DNA of 59,028 nt, taken from assembly GCA_031268985.1 (NCBI GenBank), contig JAIRWN010000031.1:1-59028 (forward strand), written 5' to 3'. Positions 9,027 to 58,999 of the stretch are shown here, in pieces (the first letter of the stretch is position 1; every line of letters starts with the position of its first letter). The position numbers and the translations under genes were made by a program. A model generated the notes under the pieces. That model ran no database searches. It saw only the letters and a program-made list of their open reading frames with translations, and was not told the DNA's origin. The stretch comes from Holosporales bacterium (lineage in GTDB: Bacteria > Pseudomonadota > Alphaproteobacteria > UBA3830 > JAIRWN01).

Positions 9027-9151
9027 AATACAAGGCCAGGTCTGTGCCAATTTTAGCATGGCCTCTGAAAACAACTTCGATCAGTCTCTTGTTGCCGTCG
9101 TTGAAGAAGTCGGACAAAATCGTTTGTCCGGCAGATGCTGTGCTCTGAGAT

Positions 9152-9180
9152 TTGTAAAGTTGATTATTGTGTGGTATATT
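9152..9180 (+). promoter_or_regulatory. Putative ssrA promoter (TTGTAA-17 nt-TATATT)
   Basis: TTGTAA at 9152-9157 and TATATT at 9175-9180. This predicts a start near 9187, about 79 nt before the CCA end of the acceptor piece. Confidence 0.4.
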
Positions 9181-9186
9181 AAAGTG

Positions 9187-9460
9187 TTGTGTAAATAACT
9201 ATAGCGATAAACGTTATAAGCAATAGGTGCTTTGGACCCGGGGGCGGAACCCGGCGTCTCCACCATTTGGGGGGACGAATTAGGCTCGACAGACATTGAA
9301 AGTTATGATTTTCGCTCGGCATGGTACCACCGTTATCGGGCTAATTTAATAAGTGCAAACGATTATGCACTGCATGACATGCGCCTAGCAGCCTAGCGGC
9401 GAGCTATAATGCATTGAATGCGCGGTTAGGGGACGCCGAGCAACAGAAGTCCCCATTCTA
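9187..9460 (+). ncRNA. ssrA: Two-piece (circularly permuted) tmRNA gene; outer boundaries approximate
   Basis: T-arm CCGGG-GGCGGAA-CCCGG (9238-9254), 3' acceptor strand CGTCTCC (9255-9261), then A and CCA (9263-9265). Immediately after comes a 5' acceptor strand GGGGACG (9271-9277), which pairs with it including a G3.U70 wobble. GGGGACGAAUUAGGCUCGAC resembles canonical tmRNA 5' ends. The tag ORF GCA AAC GAT ... GCC TAG (9355-9396) encodes ANDYALHDMRLAA. Confidence 0.8.
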
Positions 9461-9486
9461 GAGAGTAAAATCCTACGTTAAACGCG

Positions 9487-10176
9487 TTATTGAAGATGCC
9501 TACTTTCGGCGATTTTCATAAATGCTTCTATAAAAAAACAGTCTGTTTTTGTAAGACGAGCTTTCTTTTCGTATTTTGTCATAATCGTCGACCAGGGGTT
9601 TTTACCGTAGGCGCACAAACGCAAGTTGGGAACTGTGATGAGAAATAATCCACTTTCTTTAATTAAATCAAAAACGTCTCGGGCATAGCCTTCAACATCA
9701 GAAGCAAAGCGAAGAATTCCGTCAGATTTCAGTATGCGCCAAAGCGCTTCAAGAAAATCTTGCTTAAGTAATCTGCGTTTATAGTGGCGCTTCTTGGGCC
9801 ACGGGTCCGGAAACAGCATATAAATACAAGAAACGCTCCTTGTCGGAACTTCATCCAGAAAATTGCGACAGTCGCCAACAAATATTCTTATGTTTTCTAT
9901 TTTAAATTTGTCGATTGCGCTAAGCAATTTAGCAACCCCGTTAATAAAAGGCTCGCAGCCGATGAAGCATGTTCCCGGTTGATTTATGGCAAGTTGAGCA
10001 AGATGTTCGCCGTTGCCAAACCCCACTTCTATTTGAATGTCTTGATATTCAACGAACGGGCGTTTATCCGCCTTTACTTCCGGAAGCAAATCGTCCAAAA
10101 GTTGCCTTTGTCTGTCGCTCAAGCCCCTATTCTTTGTCCTTGAAAAAGACTGTATCCATTTGTGCTGATTGGTCAT
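9487..10176 (-). CDS. trmB: tRNA (guanine46-N7)-methyltransferase
   Basis: 229-aa ORF with EVGFGNGEHL SAM motif and the FPDPWPKKRHYKRR signature. Confidence 0.88.
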   Translation of the reverse strand: MTNQHKWIQSFSRTKNRGLSDRQRQLLDDLLPEVKADKRPFVEYQDIQIEVGFGNGEHLAQLAINQPGTCFIGCEPFINGVAKLLSAIDKFKIENIRIFVGDCRNFLDEVPTRSVSCIYMLFPDPWPKKRHYKRRLLKQDFLEALWRILKSDGILRFASDVEGYARDVFDLIKESGLFLITVPNLRLCAYGKNPWSTIMTKYEKKARLTKTDCFFIEAFMKIAESRHLQ

Positions 10177-10781
10177 AGATTTGGGAAATGTTTGGTTAAT
10201 ACAGCGTCAAAATCATCCAGATCTATATCAACGCCAAGATTTTTCAACGAGGTAACGCCATGCTCGTATATGCCACAGGGGATGATTTTTTTGAAAAAAG
10301 CAAGCTCTGGATTTATGTTGATGGCGATACCGTGAGTAGTAACGCCGTTTATGATTCTTATTCCTATTGCGGCAATCTTTTGAATTGGGCCGCTTTCAAC
10401 CCAAACTCCAACCTTATCGGGAATTATGAACCCTTGCACGCCGACCTCTTTAAGAGCATCTATACACCAGAGTTCAAGAATCTTTACGTACTCTTTTACG
10501 CATATTCTTCTTTTGCTGATGTTAAGCATCGTGTAAATAATGCGTTGTCCGGGGCCGTGATAAGTATATTTACCGCCGCGATTGGTTTTATATACAGGTA
10601 TATTAGTACTTTCAAGCAGCTCGCTTGGTTTTGCAAGCGCGCCATACGTTAAGATATGGGGATGCTCTAAAAACCACAATAATTCATCATATTGGTCGGA
10701 AGAAATAGCTCTTGCCATTTTATCCATAAAATCGGTTGAATATTTGTAATCTGTTGGGTGCTTAGTGTATAACCAACGCAT
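10173..10781 (-). CDS. lipB: Octanoyltransferase (lipoyl(octanoyl) transferase)
   Basis: 202-aa ORF with LEHPHILTYG, RGGKYTYHGPGQ and GVWV...KIAAIGIR motifs. 4-nt overlap with trmB. Confidence 0.88.
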   Translation of the reverse strand: MRWLYTKHPTDYKYSTDFMDKMARAISSDQYDELLWFLEHPHILTYGALAKPSELLESTNIPVYKTNRGGKYTYHGPGQRIIYTMLNISKRRICVKEYVKILELWCIDALKEVGVQGFIIPDKVGVWVESGPIQKIAAIGIRIINGVTTHGIAININPELAFFKKIIPCGIYEHGVTSLKNLGVDIDLDDFDAVLTKHFPNL

Positions 10782-10840
10782 AATTGCTTAGTAAACGTAA
10801 TTGAATCCCTCTTTTGTAGGACGCTTTAAATAAGTTAGTA

Positions 10841-11338
10841 ATGATTAAATATCGAATTGCTACTGTTATTTCTACATTTTTTTTCTTGGGAAAGCTTCCT
10901 GTCGCGCCTGGCACTGTAGGATCCTTGGGGGGGATTCTGCTGTTTGTCTTGATCAAAGAAACATATGCTTATTTATTACTTGTTTTTGGGCTTTGCGTGG
11001 TGGGTAGCTGGTCAGTTAGACTTTCGCTCGAGAAAGCAGATAGCCCAGACCCGAAATACATTGTTATCGATGAAGTAATCGGGCAAATGGTGGCGCTTGC
11101 CCCTATGATTTTATTTCATAATGGCAGCAGTACACGGATGTATTTTTTGTCCTTTATTCTGTTTCGAGCGTTCGATATTTGGAAACCTTGGCCGATTAAT
11201 TTGGTTGACGAACTTACTTACCGTAAAAATATTTCCGGAACCGGACAAGTCGCCTGCATAATAGGCGACGATATGCTGGCAGGCCTAGCGGCAGGAGCTG
11301 GTTTGTCGATTATTGTTAAGTATTTTAACGTCTCTTAG
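10841..11338 (+). CDS. pgpA: Phosphatidylglycerophosphatase A
   Basis: 165-aa membrane ORF with GKLPVAPGTVGSL, VIDEVIGQ and FRAFDIWKPWP motifs. Confidence 0.85.
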   Translation: MIKYRIATVISTFFFLGKLPVAPGTVGSLGGILLFVLIKETYAYLLLVFGLCVVGSWSVRLSLEKADSPDPKYIVIDEVIGQMVALAPMILFHNGSSTRMYFLSFILFRAFDIWKPWPINLVDELTYRKNISGTGQVACIIGDDMLAGLAAGAGLSIIVKYFNVS

Positions 11339-26260: not shown

Positions 26261-26486
26261 CGCTTCTCGGCTCTTTGGCGCATTTAAATATTTTGCTTTG
26301 TCCTTAAAAGGATCGCGAATGGGATTTGTAATACTTCTTCTGAAATTTTTAGTCAAGCAAACAAAATCCAGGTTAAAGCACGGTATGTTGTCTGTAGAAA
26401 TAGGAAACATTGTATTTATCGCGCTTGAAATATCTGTCGAATTGCAGTAAATTTAAGACTTATTGGTGTTTGTTTATGGGGTTGTT

Positions 26487-27809
26487 ATGTCCGCGCCCGT
26501 TATTGGCTATCCGTCCAAGATTGACTATAGTCAGTTTGATTCTACGAATCCAGATCCTGCGACAAAATATGGACTGCCCAAGGACGTAAAGTTTTGTAAA
26601 AAATGTACTCTTTCTAATCAGAGACCAATCGGTGTTTCGGAATTTAAAAATTTAGCCACATCTAAAAAGCAGGGAGTGGATTTCAGTGAAAAAGGGGTTT
26701 GTAGCCCATGTCTCATTGCGGAACAAAAGGCAAATGAAATATCCTGGAATGATCGTGAGCTGGAACTAAAAGAGCTTTGCGATCGTTTTCGAAGCAAAGA
26801 TGGCTCATATGACTGTATAGTTCCAGGATCGGGCGGAAAGGATAGCTTTTATGCGGCGCATATACTCAAATACAAGTATCATATGCATCCGTTGACCGTA
26901 ACATGGGCTCCGCATATTTATACCGAGTGGGGATGGCATAATTTCCGGTCTTGGCTCAATGCAGGATTTAGTAATGTTTTATATACTCCAAATCCGCGTG
27001 TTCACCGTTTATTAACTAGGTTAGCGTTAGACAAGTTACTGCATCCATTTCAACCTTTCGCGTTAGGGCAAAGATGTTTTCCGTCTAAGGTTGCTGCTGA
27101 GCTTGGTATTCCTCTTGTTTTTTATGGTGAACACGAGTCCGAATACAATAGTCCTATTTCTGAGGTGACAACAGCACAACGTGACTTTAGGTATTTTGTA
27201 GCCGACGATTTTAGTCAAATATATTTGAGCGGCGTATCAGTCGATCAGCTATTGAACGATTTCGGATTAACGCAAGGAGATCTTTCTATTTATTTTCCAA
27301 TAAAACTTGAAGAAATGAATACTAAAAAAATTGAGGTACATCATTTGGGTTATTATTTACGTTGGCATCCGCAGGGATGTTTTTACTATGCTGTTGAAAA
27401 TGGCGGCTTCAAGCCTTCACCGGAACGAACACCTGGCACGTACAGCAAATATAGCAGTATTGATGACAGAATAGACGATTATCATTTTTATACGACTTAT
27501 ATAAAATTTGGTATCGGACGAGCGACTTACGATGCGGCTCAGGAAATAAGAAATGGTGACATTAACCGGGAAGAAGGCGTCGCATTGGTCAAAAAATTTG
27601 ATGGAGAATGGCCTGAACGCTTTATGGATGAGATTTTCCGTTATTTAAGCATTACTCTTGAGGAATACCCAATCGCGTCTACTATGTTTGAGCAGCCCAT
27701 AATGGATAAGGAATATTTTATGAGGCTTTGTGATAATTTTCGTTCCCCGCACCTTTGGAAAAGGGAGGATGGAGAATGGCGTTTGCGCCATTCCGTTTTC
27801 AACGGTTAG
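26487..27809 (+). CDS. N-acetyl sugar amidotransferase (PP-loop ATP pyrophosphatase; WbpG/WbuX/PseA-like LPS protein)
   Basis: N-terminal Cys-rich segment (CKKCT...CSPC) and PP-loop PGSGGKDS. It is followed by the HisF/HisH paralogues characteristic of this module. ATG 26487 is preferred over TTG 26463. Confidence 0.75.
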   Translation: MSAPVIGYPSKIDYSQFDSTNPDPATKYGLPKDVKFCKKCTLSNQRPIGVSEFKNLATSKKQGVDFSEKGVCSPCLIAEQKANEISWNDRELELKELCDRFRSKDGSYDCIVPGSGGKDSFYAAHILKYKYHMHPLTVTWAPHIYTEWGWHNFRSWLNAGFSNVLYTPNPRVHRLLTRLALDKLLHPFQPFALGQRCFPSKVAAELGIPLVFYGEHESEYNSPISEVTTAQRDFRYFVADDFSQIYLSGVSVDQLLNDFGLTQGDLSIYFPIKLEEMNTKKIEVHHLGYYLRWHPQGCFYYAVENGGFKPSPERTPGTYSKYSSIDDRIDDYHFYTTYIKFGIGRATYDAAQEIRNGDINREEGVALVKKFDGEWPERFMDEIFRYLSITLEEYPIASTMFEQPIMDKEYFMRLCDNFRSPHLWKREDGEWRLRHSVFNG

Positions 27810-27816
27810 ACTCGTA

Positions 27817-28581
27817 ATGAGACCTTTCCGTCTTATTGCTAGACTGGACGTAAAAGGGCCGAATGTTGTCAAAGGCGTCCAGCTTGAAGGACTGAGGAAA
27901 ATAGGTAATCCGAATATTCTGGCTCAGCGTTATTATGTTGACGGAATTGACGAGATTCTTTATATGGATATTGTCGCAAGTCTTTATGAACGCAACAATC
28001 TGCTTGATATTGTCAAAGAAACAACAAAGGATGTGTTTATTCCTGTTACAGTTGGCGGTGGAGTCAGAACCCTCAGCGACGCGGCAGCGCTTTTAAGAGC
28101 TGGAGCCGATAAAATCGCCGTAAACACTGCCGCCTTGAAAAGACCTGAAATTTTGCACGAAATCAGCGACGCTTTTGGCGCGCAGTGCGTCGTTCTGTCA
28201 ATAGAAGCAAAGCGTGAATCAAATAGCAATTGGACGGCATATTATGACAATGGGCGAGAGAAAAGCGGTAAAAATGTTTTGGAATGGGCGCAACAGGCTT
28301 GCTCGTTAGGGGTTGGCGAAATATTATTGACGTCAGTCGATCAAGAAGGAACAGCGAAAGGGTTTGATTTGAAACTTGTTCAAGCAGTTACTGCGGCTGT
28401 ATCTGTTCCTGTAATAGCGTGTGGAGGTATGGGAAATATGGTTCATTTGACTGATCTTATAGAGAAAACCCATCCAGATGCTGTAGCAATGGCGCACGTA
28501 CTTCATTATGAAAAACTAACCATCTCCAGTATTCGTAAACACCTCAGCGGTCAAAAAGTTCCGGTTCGAGAAATATTTTAG
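27817..28581 (+). CDS. hisF: Imidazole glycerol phosphate synthase cyclase subunit paralogue (HisF-like, LPS-cluster type)
   Basis: RLIARLDVKGPNVVKGVQLEGLRKIGNP...DEILYMDIVAS...GGGVR...TSVDQEGT is collinear with HisF. ATG 27817 is preferred; the track ORF from 27730 overlaps the upstream gene by 80 nt. Confidence 0.85.
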   Translation: MRPFRLIARLDVKGPNVVKGVQLEGLRKIGNPNILAQRYYVDGIDEILYMDIVASLYERNNLLDIVKETTKDVFIPVTVGGGVRTLSDAAALLRAGADKIAVNTAALKRPEILHEISDAFGAQCVVLSIEAKRESNSNWTAYYDNGREKSGKNVLEWAQQACSLGVGEILLTSVDQEGTAKGFDLKLVQAVTAAVSVPVIACGGMGNMVHLTDLIEKTHPDAVAMAHVLHYEKLTISSIRKHLSGQKVPVREIF

Positions 28582-39577: not shown

Positions 39578-40243
39578 TTAATAGTATTTCTTTAAGTAAT
39601 TTATCGGATCGTCATGCATTCGAGTTTCTATATCGGCGACGATCTTTCCGCTTTTCAACAGAACGATTCTATCTGATATTTCCGTCAAAAAATCCAAATT
39701 GTGTGACGCAATCACCATAGTGACTCCGGCGGTTTCGCATACAGATTTCAGTAATAAAACCACATCCGTTGTTGTAGCGACGTCTAAGCCAGACGTTGGT
39801 TCATCGCATAGCAATGTTTCCGGATCTATCATCAAACTTCTGGCAAGAGCAACGCGTTGTTTTTCTCCCCCGGATAATGATTTCGGATATGCGTGTTTTT
39901 TTGATTCCAACCCTAAATTTCTCATTAGAGCGTTTGCTTGTTGTTCTTTATCATGCTTTTTATGTTTTTTTTTGTTCAAATTCGGAGCATACAGCAGATT
40001 CTGTATAACCGTCATGTGAGGAAAGAGCTGAAAATCTTGGAACATAAAACACATTTTTCCATTGTGTTCTATCGAGCCTCGATCCGGAGTTTCAAGGCCT
40101 TGCATACATCTCAGTAACGTAGATTTTCCACTTCCGGACGGGCCGGCCAGCCCGAATACCTTGGATTTCGATATGTCGACGGCAATCCCCTCAAGCACTT
40201 TTGTATCGTTAAACGACTTATAAACGTCATTAACCTTTAACAT
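39578..40243 (-). CDS. Polar amino-acid ABC transporter ATP-binding protein
   Basis: Walker A GPSGSGKST, signature LSGGEKQRV and Walker B LLCDEPTSGLD. The start MLKVNDVYKSF at 40243 is preferred over the track's 40333; it overlaps the permease stop by 14 nt. Confidence 0.88.
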   Translation of the reverse strand: MLKVNDVYKSFNDTKVLEGIAVDISKSKVFGLAGPSGSGKSTLLRCMQGLETPDRGSIEHNGKMCFMFQDFQLFPHMTVIQNLLYAPNLNKKKHKKHDKEQQANALMRNLGLESKKHAYPKSLSGGEKQRVALARSLMIDPETLLCDEPTSGLDVATTTDVVLLLKSVCETAGVTMVIASHNLDFLTEISDRIVLLKSGKIVADIETRMHDDPINYLKKYY

Positions 40244-40883
40244 GCAATTGCTTGCTCTCGATTTTTTTCCCGACAAACTCAATAAGCGCCACCAGCAAGT
40301 AGTAATAAACTCCGGCGATGCACAGTGGCACAAAATATTCGTATCGCTCGGCAGCCAAAGTTTGTGAGCGTCTCATAATATCAGCCCCTCCTATCGTGGC
40401 GATTAATGCTGTTTCTTTCAGTAAAGTAATGATTTCATTCACAAGAGCAGGAAAGATGTCCGCGATAACTTGCGGCATTATAATATCTTTCCACATGTAA
40501 AACTTTGGTATTCCAAGAGTTTGGGCCGCTTCAAATTGCCCCTTTGCCAGACTTTCTATGCCAGATCTCAGTATTTCGGCAATATATGCCGAACTGTTAA
40601 CGCCGAATGCAATAATACCGGCGGATGTAGCGCTTAATCTTATTCCAAGAACACACGGCACAGAAAAATATATAAGGCTCAGCTGTAAAATCAAAGGGGT
40701 TCCCCTTATAACAGAAACGGCGCGATCAATCAAAAACGTACATATCCTGCTGATATTGCTGTATCTCAGTATCGATAGCAGCGATCCGACGGTCGCGCCT
40801 ATCAAAAAGCTCCCGACCAACAGCTGCAGAGTAATCGCTAATCCTGCGCCTATGCACAAAAAACTCGAAATTAATTTTTCCAC
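40230..40883 (-). CDS. Polar amino-acid ABC transporter permease (HisM/GlnP family)
   Basis: 217 aa with 5 TM segments and an EAA-type loop: YIAEILRSGIESLAKGQFEAAQTLG. Confidence 0.85.
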   Translation of the reverse strand: MEKLISSFLCIGAGLAITLQLLVGSFLIGATVGSLLSILRYSNISRICTFLIDRAVSVIRGTPLILQLSLIYFSVPCVLGIRLSATSAGIIAFGVNSSAYIAEILRSGIESLAKGQFEAAQTLGIPKFYMWKDIIMPQVIADIFPALVNEIITLLKETALIATIGGADIMRRSQTLAAERYEYFVPLCIAGVYYYLLVALIEFVGKKIESKQLHVKG

Positions 40884-41892: not shown

Positions 41893-43218
41893 TTAATTTT
41901 TATGATCAAACGAATTCTGAGTCCTTAATATTTCATCGAGACTGTGCGTCTTAAGCAGCATTTTATTATTTTTCAATTCTTCATCTGCTTTTTCTATTGC
42001 ATTTTGGATTTCACTGCCAGAAATATAATGGCTGACACCAAAGCTAACAGATAAATTTATGTTGTTATTTTGGCAAAAGTTTTGCGATGAAATGTTGTTT
42101 TTTGTTCTTTGAACTATTTTGTTTGCTTCCTTCAAATCAATATCAGGCATTATTAAAATAAACTCATCTCCGCCATAACGGCAAACGAAGTCCGTATCTC
42201 TGACAGATTTAGTGATTGTCAGACTTAATTGTCTAAGAATTTTATCTCCGACATTATGTCCGTACTTGTCGTTAATACGCTTAAAATTATCAACATCAAG
42301 AAGGCATATAAATGCGCCGTTTTGTGGGTAGAATCGAGATGAATAATTATCAACAAAGCGTCGGTTATAGGCTTCTGTTAAAGGATCTCTTAACGTCAAC
42401 TCAATATTTTTCGATAAGCAATCGCATAATTTTAAACGTATCTTTCTGTACAACGAAAGGCTACTTATGCGTTTTTTTAGTTCTAAATCGCTGTATTGAG
42501 AGCAAAAATATTCGCAGTTTAACTTATTCGACAGCGCTAAAGAGTTGTTAAAATCCTGCCCGACTATTAATACAGAAAGATCTTTGGGGAGCTTATCTAT
42601 AAAATTTGCATATTTTCTAATATTTGCGAATATATGATTATAGCTTAGGACTAAACAAGCTAGATCTTGCTCATATACATTGGATGGTTTATCTTCCGGC
42701 AAATACTCAAAAACGTTGAATCCCAAAGATTCCAGTCGACTTATCATGCAATTATCATATTTTATTGCAGCAATATTGGCTTTGGCCGAAGTCGCCTTTT
42801 GACCTGGATAAAAATTAATTTTTTCTTTCTGAAACGTCCATAACAAACCTCGAATGTTATCAAAACGCTTTAAGCACAAAAATAAATCGTCATTGTTCTG
42901 ACCTATGCGGATAAAGTCATCGACAGAAATATCAGCGTTTGGCAAAAAGTGACGACCTTCACTGAGCGTTGCGACTACAGGAATATTTATATCCTGGTAA
43001 ACTGCTCGAGTTTTTATCTTTTTAATAATTTTATTTAGGGCGTTTGAAGGCGTGTCGAGAAATGCAGCCTCGCTGAGCAGCACTAAATCGAGAGGATTAG
43101 AACGCGCGAAATCACATAAATAATCCAGGGAATCTATAGAGACGGTGAGATAAAGAGAATTTGACAGTAATTCAGCTAATACATGGTCCCGACTGCCTTT
43201 GTTTACTATCGCTATCAA
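41893..43218 (-). CDS. Diguanylate cyclase (GGDEF) with two degenerate receiver-like N-terminal modules (PleD-like architecture)
   Basis: 441 aa with a TTG start. The C-terminal GGDEF domain has an intact active site RYGGDEF and an RxxD I-site (RDTD) 5 residues upstream. The N-terminal about 270 aa has REC-like strand/helix periodicity but no DD pair or phospho-Asp. Confidence 0.8.
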   Translation of the reverse strand: MIAIVNKGSRDHVLAELLSNSLYLTVSIDSLDYLCDFARSNPLDLVLLSEAAFLDTPSNALNKIIKKIKTRAVYQDINIPVVATLSEGRHFLPNADISVDDFIRIGQNNDDLFLCLKRFDNIRGLLWTFQKEKINFYPGQKATSAKANIAAIKYDNCMISRLESLGFNVFEYLPEDKPSNVYEQDLACLVLSYNHIFANIRKYANFIDKLPKDLSVLIVGQDFNNSLALSNKLNCEYFCSQYSDLELKKRISSLSLYRKIRLKLCDCLSKNIELTLRDPLTEAYNRRFVDNYSSRFYPQNGAFICLLDVDNFKRINDKYGHNVGDKILRQLSLTITKSVRDTDFVCRYGGDEFILIMPDIDLKEANKIVQRTKNNISSQNFCQNNNINLSVSFGVSHYISGSEIQNAIEKADEELKNNKMLLKTHSLDEILRTQNSFDHKN

Positions 43219-43597
43219 CTAAATCCTCAATGCTTCGGCCGGAACAACGAACGCTTACTGCGTGCACAAAATCGAACATATCAATGGGCTTGATAAGCAA
43301 GCTACCATAACCGTTTTTCTTTAAAAAGGCTTTTGTCTTGTTACTTGGGTTCGAGGTTAAAATCAAACAATCAATGCGATTTTTACTTGTTCCAAGGCCT
43401 TTAATTAAAAATTCAACGTTGTTTTCTTGATCATATTCGTCAAAAACGATAAGCGATATATCCTTGTTTTTGAGCTTAAACATGGCGTCATCCACCGATT
43501 GAGCTTCGCTTACTCGGTATCCGTGTGCCGTAAGCATGTCAGCGTACATACAACGTTGCGATTGATTGTTCGCGATGATCAAAATATGATTTTTCAT
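43172..43597 (-). CDS. Single-domain response-regulator receiver protein (atypical acidic pocket)
   Basis: 141 aa. The REC fold has D (SLIVFDEY), T (LILTS) and K (LIKP), but the N-terminal DD is replaced by AN (ILIIANNQ). It overlaps the GGDEF gene by 47 nt. Confidence 0.7.
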   Translation of the reverse strand: MKNHILIIANNQSQRCMYADMLTAHGYRVSEAQSVDDAMFKLKNKDISLIVFDEYDQENNVEFLIKGLGTSKNRIDCLILTSNPSNKTKAFLKKNGYGSLLIKPIDMFDFVHAVSVRCSGRSIEDLVDSDSKQRQSGPCIS

Positions 43598-45908: not shown

Positions 45909-45918
45909 AGGGGGGGGG
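45909..45918. repeat. G10 homopolymer tract in intergenic DNA
   Basis: Ten consecutive G read directly (gtggaGGGGGGGGGGct), in a 517-bp non-coding gap. Confidence 0.9.
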
Positions 45919-46196
45919 GCTATTTGCAGGCGTTTGCAAACGCCATGCAATTCCCTTTAAAGGATTGAAAACGCTGGAGCCCTCTGAACCAAGCAGCCAT
46001 ATATAACAGCCTAATGCCCAAAAACAAAACTTATTTACAGCATTACAATGCAGAATCATACAGTAGCCCACCAATATCTAGTTGAACCTTTGCAAAGGGC
46101 CCGCACAGTTTTTATTGATTTTTTGCACAGTTGTTTTATTATAATGCTTTATGGCACTGCTTTTTGGTTGATAAAAATGGAAACAAATACTGCGTC

Positions 46197-46517
46197 ATGA
46201 GGCAAGTAAAAAATCAGAATTTTGAAAAAGAAGTTCTCAATTCAGCCATACCCGTTGTTGTGGATTTTGCCGCTGAGTGGTGCCCGCCATGCAGAACTAT
46301 GGTTCCATTGTTAGATGAGTTGTTTGCTGAGCTGGCCGGGAAAGTTGATATTGTTAAGGTAAACATAGACGAATCACCTGAGCTTGCTGGTAAATATGGA
46401 GTTATGAGTATTCCTACAATGATTCTGTTCAAGGGTGGAAAACAGACCAGCTCTATAGTCGGCGGGCATTCTAAAGCAAAGATTGCCGAATGGATTAACT
46501 CTGAAATTAGCCTATGA
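46197..46517 (+). CDS. trxA: Thioredoxin (active site WCPPC)
   Basis: 106 aa from ATG 46197. FEKEVLNSAIPVVVDFAAEWCPPCRTMVP....VKVNIDE.PELA.KYGVMSIPTMILFKGG is the canonical Trx fold. The upstream extension in the ORF track (46131) is unlikely. Confidence 0.88.
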   Translation: MRQVKNQNFEKEVLNSAIPVVVDFAAEWCPPCRTMVPLLDELFAELAGKVDIVKVNIDESPELAGKYGVMSIPTMILFKGGKQTSSIVGGHSKAKIAEWINSEISL

Positions 46518-54957: not shown

Positions 54958-56295
54958 TCATAACACTTTACCACTTAGTAATTGTTGGATTTGGTTTTGC
55001 GTAATTCGGTTTCCTTTGAATCGTTTTATAAAACCGAGCATAGTCTCAAAATTTCTAAGCAGTTTGTTAACTTCTTGAACTGACGTTCCGGAGCCGGTGG
55101 CTATACGTCTTTTCCTACTACCCTTGATGATTCTATAGTCTTTTCTTTCTTGCCCGGTCATTGATTGTATAATCGACAACTGCCTTTTTACCATCGTTTC
55201 GCTGTTTGTTTTGGCATTGGCTTTCTCTATTAGCGAACCGATTCCGGGAAGCATTCCAAGGATACTGCTTACGCCGCCCATTTTACTTAGCGTTTGAATT
55301 TGCTTAGCCAAGTCGTTTAAGTCAAACCCTCCACGCATTAAACGAGCGGAGCTGCCTTTTTCTTCATCTTCGCCAGCCGTCTTTCCTATTTGTTCTATCA
55401 AAGAGACTACATCCCCTATCCCAAGGATTTTTTTGGCGATCTTTACGGGGTCAAAACGTTCGATATCACTTAGTTTTTCACCGGTACTTAAAAATACAAT
55501 CGGAGCGCTTGTTGCCTTTCCTATGGAAATTATTGCCCCACCTTTCGTATCGGCGTCTACGCGCGTCATTACAACGCCGGTGATTTTTAAAACGGCCGCG
55601 AATTGCTGCGCCATTTTTACTGCGTCTTGCCCCATCATAGAATCAACAACGAGGAAAACTTCATCCGGATCAAACGCTTTATGAACGTTGTCTAGCTCTT
55701 GCATCATATCTGCATCTGTGTGTAAGCGGCCAGCCGTATCCATGATCAGCGTTTGACAATTACTTGTCTTGAAGGCTTCTAAAGTTTTTTTAACTATATC
55801 AATCGAACCAATATCGAGCGCAGCGCTAAAAAATTCTGCTCCAGCTTTTTCGGAAAGAATTCTAAGCTGCTCTGCTGCGGCAGGACGGTAAATATCGCAT
55901 GTCGCGGTCATCACTTTTTTTTGTTTGAGCATACTGGCTAGTTTCGCGGCAACCGTAGTTTTTCCCACTCCTTGCAGCCCAACTAACATAATGCGTTTCG
56001 GGTGTGATTTTTCAAGAACGTCTCGATTGTTTTCTGACAACATAGAGACCAGTTGATCATTGACCATTTTTATAATCAACTGGTCAGGAGTAATGCTTTT
56101 GACCACTTGTTGACCGACAGCTTGCTCTTTTAGGTTATTGATAAACTCTTTGACTATTGCCAAAGAAATATCTGCTTCCAGAAGCGATATTCTAATTTCA
56201 CGAATTGCATTTTCTATATCTTCAGAGCGAAGAATACCCGTGCGTTGCAGACCACTGAATATCGAGCCGAATCTTTTTGAGATGTTTTCAAACAA
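54958..56295 (-). CDS. ffh: Signal recognition particle protein Ffh
   Basis: GLQGVGKTT, DTAGR and a Met-rich M domain. The conserved N-terminus (M)FENISKRF begins at TTG 56293-56295. The track's 35-codon upstream extension has no Ffh counterpart. Confidence 0.9.
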   Translation of the reverse strand: MFENISKRFGSIFSGLQRTGILRSEDIENAIREIRISLLEADISLAIVKEFINNLKEQAVGQQVVKSITPDQLIIKMVNDQLVSMLSENNRDVLEKSHPKRIMLVGLQGVGKTTVAAKLASMLKQKKVMTATCDIYRPAAAEQLRILSEKAGAEFFSAALDIGSIDIVKKTLEAFKTSNCQTLIMDTAGRLHTDADMMQELDNVHKAFDPDEVFLVVDSMMGQDAVKMAQQFAAVLKITGVVMTRVDADTKGGAIISIGKATSAPIVFLSTGEKLSDIERFDPVKIAKKILGIGDVVSLIEQIGKTAGEDEEKGSSARLMRGGFDLNDLAKQIQTLSKMGGVSSILGMLPGIGSLIEKANAKTNSETMVKRQLSIIQSMTGQERKDYRIIKGSRKRRIATGSGTSVQEVNKLLRNFETMLGFIKRFKGNRITQNQIQQLLSGKVL

Positions 56296-56489: not shown

Positions 56490-56579
56490 GGAGGGGTGGC
56501 CGAGCGGTTTAAGGCACCGGTCTTGAAAACCGGCAGGAAGGTAACTTTCTCGTGGGTTCGAATCCTACCCCCTCCACCA
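56490..56579 (+). tRNA. tRNA-Ser (anticodon UGA), long variable arm, CCA encoded
   Basis: Acceptor GGAGGGG/CCCCTCC, anticodon stem CCGGT/ACCGG with loop CTTGAAA, a variable arm of about 19 nt, and T-loop TTCGAAT. Confidence 0.92.
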
Positions 56580-56746
56580 AGATATAGTCCGAACAGATTC
56601 AGAGAAGTATAATTTTATAGTGAGGGATGGCAGATTTGTTAGGTTTTAGTGGTAGTATTTATTCAAACGAGTCTAATAAAATCCGCTTGCATCCTGGTAT
56701 TTTTGGTACCAAAATCGGTACCAGAGATTTTTGTATGGATGGTTCG

Positions 56747-57487
56747 ATGTTGAATGATGCGGTATGCAGGAATGCTAAGGGAAGGGACAAGATTTATACA
56801 ATAACCGATGAGAAGGGGTTATGCCTGGAAATCTATCCGAACGGAAATAAATTCTGGAGGCTTTACTACAGGCACGCAGGAGTGAAGAAGCGGATAGCGT
56901 TAGGGGTGTATCCTGAGGTTTCGTTGAGAGAAGCCAGAGACAAAAGGGAGGAGCTCAGAGCAATCATCAAGGGAGGAGAAGACCCTGCTGAGATCAGGAG
57001 GCGGGATAAGCTTGAGGCTAAGGAAGCCGTACAGAACACGTTCAAGAACATTGCGTTGGAATGGCTTGAGAAGAAGAAAGGGTCAGTAATAGCGCGTCAG
57101 ATGTTTTCTATTACCAGAAGGCTGGAGATGAATGTGCTGCCGTTTCTAGGCAGTATTCCAATAAAGAAGATATCACCTAAAGATTTACTAGCGACCATAC
57201 GCAAAGTGGAGGAGCGAGGAGCGTTAGATATGGCTCATCGTACTCTGCAGTATGTGGGGCAGATTTTTCGTTATGCGATAGCCACAGACAGATGTGAGCA
57301 CGACGTTACCGCAGACCTAAGGGGAGCGTTAATGCCCGTGAAATCAAATCACTATGCGTATTTTTCAGAGAAGGAGTTTTGTAAGTTTCTGAATGGTTTT
57401 CATGAATTCAGAGGGAATGTTCTGACGAAGCTAGCGTTGGAGTTGTTGATACTGACGTTTGTTACGTTGAGGAGACGCCAACGTTGA
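56747..57487 (+). pseudogene. P4-family tyrosine integrase, truncated (arm-binding DUF4102 and part of the SAM-like core-binding domain only)
   Basis: MLNDAVCRNAKGRDKIYTITDEKGLCLEIYPNGNKFWRLYYRHAGVKKRIALGVYPEVSLREARDKREELRAIIKGGEDP is a typical P4-integrase N-terminus. The frame ends ...LELLILTFV-TLRRRQR-stop after 246 aa. The R..HxxR..Y catalytic domain is absent, and the last codons are encoded by the 45-bp repeat. Confidence 0.8.
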
Positions 57488-57513
57488 TTGCGTTTATAAA
57501 CTAAGCCAACCCG
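57469..57513. repeat. 45-bp direct repeat, copy A
   Basis: GAGGAGACGCCAACGTTGATTGCGTTTATAAACTAAGCCAACCCG is 44/45 identical to 58955-58999. It lies 7 nt beyond the LRR stop codon and supplies the premature end of the integrase frame. Confidence 0.9.
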
Positions 57514-57520
57514 TTTGAGC

Positions 57521-58737
57521 TTAATGTCTGGCAATCACAACCCTAGCTGTTTTAGGAATAGCGTTTCCTCTTATACTTCTCAGTCGAGAGTCGGGCTCAA
57601 ATCCTACCCTGCGCAGGCTGTGGCATTCCTCAAAACACAGCCCGCTAATTATCTCTACACTCCGCGGAATACGGATAGATCTCAGTGAAGCACAACCCGA
57701 AAAGGCCCCCGCTTCGATCTCTCTCAATTGTGAACGGTCCTCAAACGTTACTCTTTTCAGAGCTCTACAATCCGAAAAGCAATTGTCGCTTATTCTTCGT
57801 ACACTAGCCGTAATGTCAATAGATGTCAGTAAAGTGCAGAAAGAAAAGGCCTCACTTCCGATCTCTATCAATTGTGAACCGGTCTTAAACGTTATACTGC
57901 TCAGGCTTTCACAATAACAAAAACACTCTTTCCCGAGGGTCCGTACACCTGGCGGAACGCTTATCGATTCCAGTGAAGAACAATTGGAAAAGGCTCGGCC
58001 TTTGATCTCTCTCAATCGAGAGCCAGGCCCAAAGTATGCGGCTTCTAGTCGTCTACAACAAAAAAACATTCCCTTTCGAGAACTACTACACTCCGCGGAA
58101 TATCCATAGATATCAGTGAAATACAACTAGCAAAGGCGCCAGATCCGATACTTGTCAAGCGCGAGTCGGGCCCAAAGTATACGGATTCTAGTCTTTCACA
58201 ATCAGAAAAAACATTTTTTCCGAGAGTCTTTACACCTGAAGGAATGTTAATAGATGTCAGTAAAATGCAGTAAGAAAAAGCCCCACTTTCGATCGATGTC
58301 AATTGCGAGTCGAGCGCAAACGTCACATCGCTCAGTGCGTTACAAGCACCAAAACACTCTTCTCCGAGAGTCTTTACCCCTGAAGGAATGTTAATAGATG
58401 TTAGTGAAGTGCAGTAAGAAAAGACCCGACAGTTGATCCTTGTCAATTGCGAGCCGGGCTCAAAGACTATAATTGACAAACGACCACGACGACCGGAATA
58501 GGGGCCGCCGACAGTGCTCATAGGACTCGCAAACCACTCTCTGTTATTATTCCTAGCAATTATCCCACTTTGGGCCTGACTTGCCACCCCATCTACACAA
58601 AGTATTCTTCTGGAAAATTGGCTAGAGTCTCTGCCTATAACTTTCTTAAGACTACAATTTGCGATTTCAGGGATAAGCAATGCTGCTACTGATGCTATTA
58701 TAACTTTTTTCACGATTATTCCTTTTATAATGAGCAA
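57521..58737 (-). pseudogene. BspA-type (LRR_5-like) leucine-rich-repeat surface protein, split into two ORFs by a 1-nt frameshift in a T7 run
   Basis: ORFs 58045..58737 and 57521..58126 overlap out of frame. Both carry the same ~24-aa repeat (F..C.SL.SI.IP.SV..LG..CF..C..L..V.F). The frame switch maps to A7 at 58060-58066. The likely start is GTG 58713 (AAGGA SD), giving the signal-like MKKVIIASVAALL. Confidence 0.8.
58221..58427 (-). repeat. In-gene tandem duplication, 144-bp period (two LRR units)
   Basis: 58221-58284 and 58365-58427 are near-identical (cgagagtctttac.cctgaaggaatgttaatagatgt.agt.aa.tgcagtaagaaaa). They encode the duplicated SINIPSGVKTLG blocks 48 aa apart. Confidence 0.85.
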
Positions 58738-58909
58738 TGTTAACTGAGCGATAGTATTAAACTGACGTCAGTTTCGCAATATATTTAATATTTTTTTACC
58801 AATCAGCCGATTGGCTGGCTAGTACGGCGTTTCTGTTCTTAAATTAGCTTTAGCTAGATTAGCGAATAGATCGAATTGCTTGCTATGCTAATTTGACCTG
58901 AAATAGAAG

Positions 58910-58938
58910 CCCCCGCTGCAGGGCAAGCAGCGCGGGGG
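58910..58938 (-). terminator. GC-rich hairpin, probable terminator of the gene lying to the right (minus strand)
   Basis: CCCCCGC (58910-58916) pairs with GCGGGGG (58932-58938), with extra inner pairs. On the minus strand it is followed by the T-rich CTTCTATTTC. Confidence 0.45.
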
Positions 58939-58954
58939 ATCTTGTGATTGCGTC

Positions 58955-58999
58955 GAGGAGACGCCAACGTTGATTGCGTTTATAAACCAAGCCAACCCG
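58955..58999. repeat. 45-bp direct repeat, copy B
   Basis: GAGGAGACGCCAACGTTGATTGCGTTTATAAACCAAGCCAACCCG. A minus-strand TAA at 59007-59009 sits at the same 7-nt offset as the LRR stop does from copy A. Confidence 0.9.

Follow-up and report, generated by a model that had tools for sequence, protein, structure and literature searches.

Organization of the locus

The DNA analysed here, referred to as the window, is an entire contig of 59,028 bases. A tmRNA of the permuted alpha-type shows that it derives from an alphaproteobacterium, and the core genes neighbouring the locus described below (ffh, clpB, fabG, fabD and tsaD) are intact. Among available genomes, a MAG labelled 'Holosporales bacterium' comes closest, its ClpB being 81% identical in sequence; the clpB locus of this MAG is non-syntenic with the window, and a genome scan anchored on Ffh retrieved nothing closer than 45%. 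Directly after ffh lies a tRNA-Ser(UGA) gene (56490..56579, plus strand), followed by a tyrosine integrase gene of the P4 type that is cut short (56735..57487, plus strand). The remainder of the contig carries, on the minus strand, a leucine-rich-repeat gene of the BspA type (Pfam LRR_5; 57521..58713), which extends from a GTG start codon at 58713 to a TAA stop codon at 57523-57521. A -1 frameshift inside this gene splits it into two overlapping reading frames, and restoration of a single T yields a protein of 397 amino acids.

The upstream reading frame (58045..58713, minus strand) gives a 222-aa product ending in ...ECFFVVDD*, which consists of a signal-peptide-like N-terminus and about 5.5 LRR units. 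When read from the alternative start, the corresponding minus-strand ORF (58045..58737) has the C-terminal end ...IPRSVVVLERECFFVVDD*, that is, it proceeds through ...IPRSVVVLERECFF and then terminates with VVDD-stop at 58045. The downstream reading frame (57521..58069, minus strand) comprises 182 stop-free codons of LRR units and is opened by a fortuitous ATG at 58069-58067 that overlaps the T run described next; the longer ORF to which it belongs (57521..58126) includes MFFCCRRLEAAYFGPGSRLREIKGRAF... Both half-ORFs switch frames at a run of seven T residues in the coding sense, corresponding to seven A residues on the plus strand (58060-58066). This T7 run falls in the middle of the ORF, at codon 216 of 397. 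The missing base maps to it, and the run also forms a perfect X_XXY_YYZ heptamer. Addition of one T, resulting in T8, generates a single 397-aa ORF with the junction unit ...ERECFFCCRRLEAAYF..., in which the CF-xx-C-xxL-xxxx-F spacing equals that of the other six LRR units. Deletion of two T residues from T7 restores the frame too, but produces CFCC and leaves the unit one residue short. A preliminary description of this DNA had interpreted the two ORFs as one LRR gene of about 400 codons, split at this A7 run, whose repeat register is retained upon addition of one T and broken upon removal of two. These statements on the sequence are all correct.

The GTG codon at 58713 is preceded by AAGGA at a distance of six nucleotides and leads to the 222-aa product as recorded in NCBI and JGI. 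It is likely the start codon of the gene, rather than TTG at 58737; of the gene span given previously, the stop end at 57521 stands and the start has to be moved. A promoter-like sequence TTAACA-17-AATAAT (58743-58715) ends 2 nt before the GTG codon and cannot serve this start. Further upstream, a terminator-like GC-rich hairpin followed by a T-rich tail (58909..58924, minus strand) parts the LRR gene from any minus-strand gene past the contig end. The 222-aa upstream product is the sole protein record of the gene in NCBI and JGI, whose deposits represent one assembly and are not independent. The downstream half has no gene call in the databases, and exact look-ups found neither this half nor the repaired 397-aa sequence in the protein collection, nor a second contig on record carrying the upstream product.

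The repaired gene encodes a predicted BspA-type solenoid

The repaired 397-aa protein matches the LRR_5 profile (PF13306) in three stretches with E=1.1e-65 and 219.8 bits as compared to a cutoff of 27.7, which bears out the family assignment made earlier. Comparison with solved structures by phmmer identified PDB entry 4fs7 (394 aa; E=7.5e-39), and the best alignment stretch covers query residues 209-374, thereby crossing the junction at residue ~217. Further sequence matches to solved LRR_5 proteins are 4gt6, TpLRR (6mlx) and PcpA (4cp6). An AlphaFold2 model of the repaired protein, computed with 33 homologues as input, reached a mean pLDDT of 85.6, with values of 97-99 over residues ~100 to ~380 and low confidence for residues 1-48. 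In this model, beta-strands recur at ~24-residue intervals and continue uninterrupted through the frameshift junction, and the top Foldseek matches are 4fs7, 4cp6, 4gt6, 4h09 and 6mlx. As predicted by the model, the repaired gene encodes one continuous beta-solenoid of the BspA type. The N-terminus consists of MKK, a hydrophobic stretch of 11 residues (residues 4-14) and the sequence IANC, a non-canonical lipobox. The protein is probably exported; MKK and the hydrophobic stretch allow the signal peptide proposed before to be termed signal-peptide-like only.

Among 5.8 billion proteins, the closest non-self matches of the repaired protein are 33-45% identical, and a metagenome scan with confirmation by tblastn yielded nothing above 31% identity. 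Codon usage differs between the LRR gene and the genes of the window. Phe is encoded by TTT and TTC at a ratio of 22:1 in the LRR gene vs 504:206 in window genes, and the ratios of the Cys codons TGT and TGC are 17:5 vs 121:137, respectively. This codon usage is consistent with a foreign origin.

The LRR gene resides in the remnant of a tRNA-Ser island

The tRNA-Ser gene represents the integration site of a genomic island. The integrase ORF, which can be read from 56627 or 56735, begins directly past the tRNA gene, and its annotated product has 250 residues. It contains the Arm-DNA-bind_3 and Phage_int_M domains, and a Pfam profile search gave no match to the catalytic domain PF00589. An intact counterpart, a 393-aa integrase from a related MAG, is 84% identical and adjoins tRNA-Ala and AlpA-like cargo; as compared to this relative, ~114 C-terminal residues are absent. 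Nucleotide homology between the two genes extends from window position 56621 up to 57461/57462. Past the shared residues ...LILTFV, the sequence RSGELRGAKWEEFD... leads into the catalytic domain of the relative, but in the window TLRRRQR* follows.

At 57462, exactly where the homology ends, a 52-nt direct repeat begins. Copy 1 (57462..57513, no strand assigned) is located 8 nt past the stop codon of the minus-strand LRR gene, and copy 2 (58948..58999, no strand assigned), 49/52 identical to copy 1, precedes the LRR start by about 235 nt and is followed by the last 29 nt of the contig. Thus, the LRR gene is bracketed by the repeat, and as the integrase lacks its catalytic domain, the gene resides in a dead island remnant. 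There is no third copy within the window. Genome, metagenome and viral collections contained 0 exact matches to the repeat, and Rfam returned nothing there. In a bolder version, the repeats could be the marks of a small mobile cassette that brought the LRR gene into the integrase. The bracketing of the LRR gene by this repeat, together with its coincidence with the integrase breakpoint, is the point most in need of explanation at this locus.

Two further candidate features were rejected. The T-arm of tRNA-Ser matches positions 57593-57609 at 15/17 bases, but these positions are part of the LRR repeat consensus and the match does not exceed chance, which speaks against a tRNA-derived att site; likewise, a search for an attR copy of the tRNA-Ser 3' end after position 56600, within the contig ending at 59028, returned only chance-level matches of <=10 nt. 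An integron cassette requires an IntI-type integrase and an attC that reads 5'-RYYYAAC...GTTRRRY-3' on the coding strand of its ORF. Here, the integrase is of the P4 type and the repeat has the order GTTG...CAAC, with no RYYYAAC/GTTRRRY pair.

The T7/T8 tract is ordinary in length and density

The window contains 46 A/T runs of length 7, nine of length 8 and one of length 9. Within its intact genes (47 kb), 45 runs of at least 7 A or T residues occur in frame on the sense strand, eight of them being 8-9 nt long, which corresponds to a density of about 0.95 per kb. Given this background, one such run is expected in the LRR gene with its length of 1.19 kb. Long runs in intact genes include an A8 run in ffh (55915-55922), an A8 run in cheA and an A9 run in the gene of an ABC ATPase. 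The T8 run of the repaired gene reads TGT TTT TTT TGT, that is, Cys-Phe-Phe-Cys. At the equivalent CF position the other six LRR units have T4, T4, T6, T5, T4 and T4; T8 is found only in the junction unit because Phe-Phe is encoded there and TGT codons flank it on both sides. Hence, both the length and the density of the T7/T8 tract are ordinary.

Nature and age of the lesion

The identity of the gene, its exact lesion, the ordinary tract and the decayed island are direct observations. What they mean for the cell has to be weighed between several readings. We consider it somewhat more probable than all else that the loss of one T from T8 is real and non-programmed, and that it has turned an island cargo gene into a young, possibly leaky pseudogene. 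According to this scenario, a BspA-type (LRR_5) gene would have been acquired horizontally and carried in what is now the remnant of the tRNA-Ser island of an uncultured Holosporales-like alphaproteobacterium. Replication slippage would then have shortened its ordinary coding run of T8 by one residue, creating a lesion that is real and non-programmed and that would not be maintained as a switch. The resulting young pseudogene would make the 222-aa N-terminal product. Full-length LRR protein would amount to a few percent at most, arising from unprogrammed slippage of RNA polymerase or the ribosome at T7. We infer that the lesion is present in cells and that it is unselected, and the same holds for any leakiness. 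The preliminary description had offered a phase-variable switch, a fresh pseudogene and an assembly error, and among these the fresh pseudogene has the strongest support.

The LRR gene itself holds no second lesion that would prove decay, which counts against a young pseudogene. A consensus error in an intact gene would look alike, as would a reversible OFF state. In addition, surface LRR_5 proteins are a class for which phase variation by simple-sequence repeats has been demonstrated in another organism (PMC5476646), and by analogy this also speaks against the preferred reading. Whichever reading holds, both the mechanism and the gene class are already known.

The 179 codons downstream of the tract are free of stops, and all LRR consensus positions are kept. 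However, only 4.4% of the possible substitutions create a stop in the downstream LRR frame, and therefore the open frame is a weaker argument for recency than assumed. Indeed, the frame stays stop-free at even odds through about 15 substitutions (3% divergence), and the chance of remaining so falls to 5% at about 66 substitutions (12%). The preserved register had been taken to argue for a very recent or reversible event; the open downstream frame sets a bound of only ~15 (even odds) to ~66 substitutions (5% chance).

Assembly error

Alternatively, the missing T might be an artefact of assembly or consensus building, or a call from a mixed population, in which case the true gene would have T8 and be intact, with the contig being one T short. 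We regard this as unlikely. The LRR gene is otherwise flawless, and the contig ends in a repeat, as MAGs and draft assemblies typically do, their consensus merging the variants of a population; both observations would fit an artefact. However, the intact genes of the same contig contain the 45 in-frame sense runs mentioned above, and a homopolymer-prone platform should have disrupted several genes over 59 kb. Ten housekeeping genes, each with A/T runs of at least 7, match full-length NCBIfam models, and the T7 run of the LRR gene is the sole homopolymer-associated frame break seen among the large ORFs of the window. Three ORF pairs were considered as candidates for a second frameshift and dismissed: the pair 39578-40333 / 40230-40883 is a normal pair of ABC ATPase and permease genes overlapping at their ends, and the pairs 41893-43218 / 43172-43597 and 26463-27809 / 27730-28581 overlap without runs of at least 7. 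As the LRR lesion is the only break of its kind, a generally homopolymer-noisy assembly is unlikely, and the assembly error proposed earlier is in this general form made less likely. An isolated miscall at T7, or a population polymorphism collapsed there, is possible.

Phase variation

The preliminary description had put a phase-variable switch first. Accordingly, the LRR gene would be a contingency locus in which slipped-strand mispairing at replication interconverts T7 and T8, providing a heritable and reversible ON/OFF switch of a surface protein for host interaction, and the assembled population would be OFF. A change of one base in the homopolymer indeed toggles the LRR frame with perfect register (a cut-off product with T7, 397 aa with T8), and the downstream half is undecayed. 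Moreover, Ca. Mycoplasma girerdii switches this class of genes through simple-sequence repeats; it has eight BspA-like genes with length variants in metagenomic reads and an assembled allele that is often OFF (PMC5476646).

However, the tract at hand is short and does not exceed the background in length or density, so that ffh and cheA would count as switches too. With the codons of this gene, Cys-Phe-Phe-Cys yields T8 by default, and the other LRR units reach only T4-T6. The tract is in the middle of the ORF, and the OFF state would therefore still give the 222-aa fragment, which is probably exported. Finally, the gene resides in a dead island, and neither a paralogue family nor other tract-bearing LRR genes were detected in the collections searched. 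Nor did these collections yield an orthologue, a related strain or a second assembly for comparison of the tract length. For Holosporales, full-text literature searches retrieved no account of phase variation. A contingency locus thus appears improbable, and as a headline the switch lacks specific support, given a tract of background length at codon 216 of 397 in a dead island. More doubtful still is the broader idea that, in a Holosporales-like protist symbiont, T7/T8 gates the production of an LRR protein with a role in host interaction, be it as a heritable switch or with a fixed T7 that, by slippage on U_UUU_UUU, gives the 222- and 397-aa products side by side.

Programmed recoding

The least probable reading, which we hardly credit, is that the T7 allele is functional and that programmed recoding, by -1 ribosomal frameshifting or insertion of a U, delivers the 397-aa protein beside the 222-aa product. 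It draws on the upstream frame TG[T TTT TTT]G, a perfect U_UUU_UUU heptamer with a zero-frame stop four codons behind it. A -1 slip simulated at this site reproduces the T8-repaired protein exactly; the predicted trans-frame product holds ...VVLERECFFCCR... (...ECFFCCR...) as compared to the zero-frame C-terminus ...ECFFVVDD. However, the 90 nt downstream fold no better than shuffled sequences, with an MFE of -21.2 vs a shuffle mean of -22.1 kcal/mol (z=+0.30) and 113/200 shuffles folding as well, and hence give no sign of a stimulatory structure. Upstream SD-like stimulators are spaced roughly 10-14 nt from the slippery site, as in dnaX, but the sole SD-like element here, AAGGG, ends 4 nt before the heptamer. 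Furthermore, the U_UUU_UUU heptamer shifts weakly in E. coli, to a far lower extent than A_AAA_AAG (PMC5009743).

As to transcription, RNA polymerase of E. coli rescues an out-of-frame reporter by insertional slippage to about 5% at T7 and about 10% at T8, with none below T7 (PMC6260861). T7 is thus the lower threshold, which would still permit insertion of a U at this site. By comparison, slippage rescue in endosymbionts is documented at tracts of 9-12 (PMC3017870). While programmed recoding fares poorly, unprogrammed leakiness of a few percent at T7 is plausible and would be compatible with the young pseudogene.

Significance and comparison with known systems

If the young pseudogene is the correct reading, the lesion is one more single-base homopolymer break in an accessory surface-protein gene, of the kind routinely flagged by annotation pipelines. 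The break nevertheless hides the 397-aa LRR_5 architecture from the protein databases, where the public protein is the 222-aa fragment only. Its repair adds a divergent BspA-type LRR protein, with no relative above 45% identity, to a lineage of protist symbionts, in which proteins interacting with eukaryotes are of interest. Should a mixture of T7 and T8 prove true, switching of BspA-like genes by repeats would be extended from mycoplasmas to intracellular alphaproteobacteria, although the mechanism would still be a known one.

In its protein family, the repaired protein joins the surface proteins of the BspA/TpLRR type, such as BspA of Tannerella forsythia, LrrA/TpLRR of Treponema, pneumococcal PcpA and BACOVA_04585 of Bacteroides (4fs7). 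It shares with them the LRR_5 profile, the repeat of about 24 residues and the CF-xx-C-xxL spacing, and its size is in the range of about 390-400 aa like that of 4fs7 and 4gt6. Unlike in the known cases, the gene is frameshifted, its closest relative among the 5.8 billion proteins does not exceed 45% identity (<=45%), and the host is a Holosporales-like alphaproteobacterium rather than an oral or gut bacterium. The surrounding DNA follows the plan of P4-type (DUF4102/Arm-DNA-bind_3) islands, with the gene of an integrase carrying Arm-DNA-bind_3 and Phage_int_M domains placed directly behind a tRNA gene. In contrast to these islands, the integrase is devoid of the catalytic domain and is cut exactly at the 52-nt repeat.

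With -1 frameshifting of the dnaX/IS3 type the locus has in common a zero-frame X_XXY_YYZ heptamer, a nearby zero-frame stop and a long -1 product, but it differs by the absence of a downstream stimulatory structure and of a correctly spaced SD element, and by its weak type of heptamer. The BspA-like genes of Ca. Mycoplasma girerdii (PMC5476646) are similar in that one repeat unit of an LRR_5 gene decides between a cut-off and an intact product and in that the assembled form is OFF. Their tracts are, however, dinucleotide repeats of at least 5 units and G8, they are present in many paralogues, and their variants were counted in reads, whereas here there is a single T7 of background length in the assembly, with no paralogues found.

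A further parallel exists with the endosymbionts Blochmannia and Buchnera. For endosymbiont genomes, indels in A/T tracts have been described as key early steps by which genes erode, and homopolymer frameshifts in these two genera are sometimes tolerated by virtue of transcriptional slippage (PMC3017870). Their tracts measure 9-12 nt in genomes of about 27-30% GC, and some of the frameshifts are conserved between species (PMC3017870), as compared to a 7-nt tract at 43% GC in a non-essential cargo gene of an island in the present case. Common to both are the intracellular lineage, an AT-leaning genome and a single poly(A/T) indel in an otherwise in-frame gene, and in both it is equally difficult to tell a recent lesion from slippage that is tolerated.

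A repeat flanks the LRR gene and marks the end of the integrase

The frameshifted LRR_5 gene on the minus strand (57521-58713) lies between two copies of a 52-nt direct repeat (57462-57513 and 58948-58999), which match at 49 of 52 positions and contain the nested palindromes CAACGTTG and GTTTATAAAC. Read on the minus strand, a TAA precedes each copy by ~8 nt, an arrangement resembling that of an element which follows the 3' ends of two consecutive genes; the second copy ends 29 nt from the contig end. Searches of genome, metagenome and viral collections with the repeat returned no match, and no Rfam family was matched. A cassette end, a recombination site and a dispersed repeat are candidates for its nature.

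The first base of copy 1 is also the exact point at which the P4-type integrase gene adjoining tRNA-Ser (56627-57487, plus strand) is truncated. Comparison with an intact, 84% identical integrase in a related Holosporales MAG (L040, positions 10001-11182), which adjoins tRNA-Ala, revealed that the protein encoded in the window stops after ...LILTFV and lacks ~114 aa, the catalytic domain among them. The intact gene is followed by a gene for a 317-aa coiled-coil-like protein, which has no match in Pfam, and by a small ORF that reads as AlpA-like.

Codon choice and possible expression signals of the LRR gene

T-ending synonymous codons are strongly favoured in the LRR gene (TTT:TTC 22:1, TGT:TGC 17:5), unlike in the other genes of the window (504:206 and 121:137, respectively), which suggests that the LRR gene was acquired horizontally. 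Approximately 50 nt 5' of its start codon, a perfect 16-nt palindrome (AAACTGACGTCAGTTT, core TGACGTCA; 58759-58774) is flanked on both sides by weak promoter-like hexamers and may represent a putative operator.

A downstream-frame ATG on the minus strand (58067-58069) touches the T7 run, the site of the missing T (GGGAATGTTTTTTT), and might in theory serve as a start codon of its own for the C-terminal half, which would then begin MFFCCRR.... However, only 2 nt separate this ATG from the end of an SD-like AAGGG, and the product would be devoid of an export signal.

Other features of the window

An intergenic G10 homopolymer (45910-45919) is the sole G/C run longer than 7 nt in the window and, as judged by its length, more likely than the T7 run to be hypermutable. 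It is located ~230 nt downstream of tRNA-Lys and ~210 nt upstream of the start of a plus-strand ORF (46131-46517), and is followed by the near-palindrome TTTGCAGGCGTTTGCAAACGCC.

An alpha-type tmRNA in two-piece (permuted) form is present at 9148-9487, its predicted tag being ANDYALHDMRLAA; this permuted type helps to place the source organism in the Alphaproteobacteria. On the minus strand, two ORFs of 141 aa and 441 aa (41893-43597) share 47 nt in different frames, and homopolymer runs of at least 7 nt are absent from this overlap. The pair may be separate genes or the parts of a single PleD-like gene that has been split; from their translations alone, the shorter ORF reads as receiver-domain-like and the longer as receiver-like plus GGDEF.
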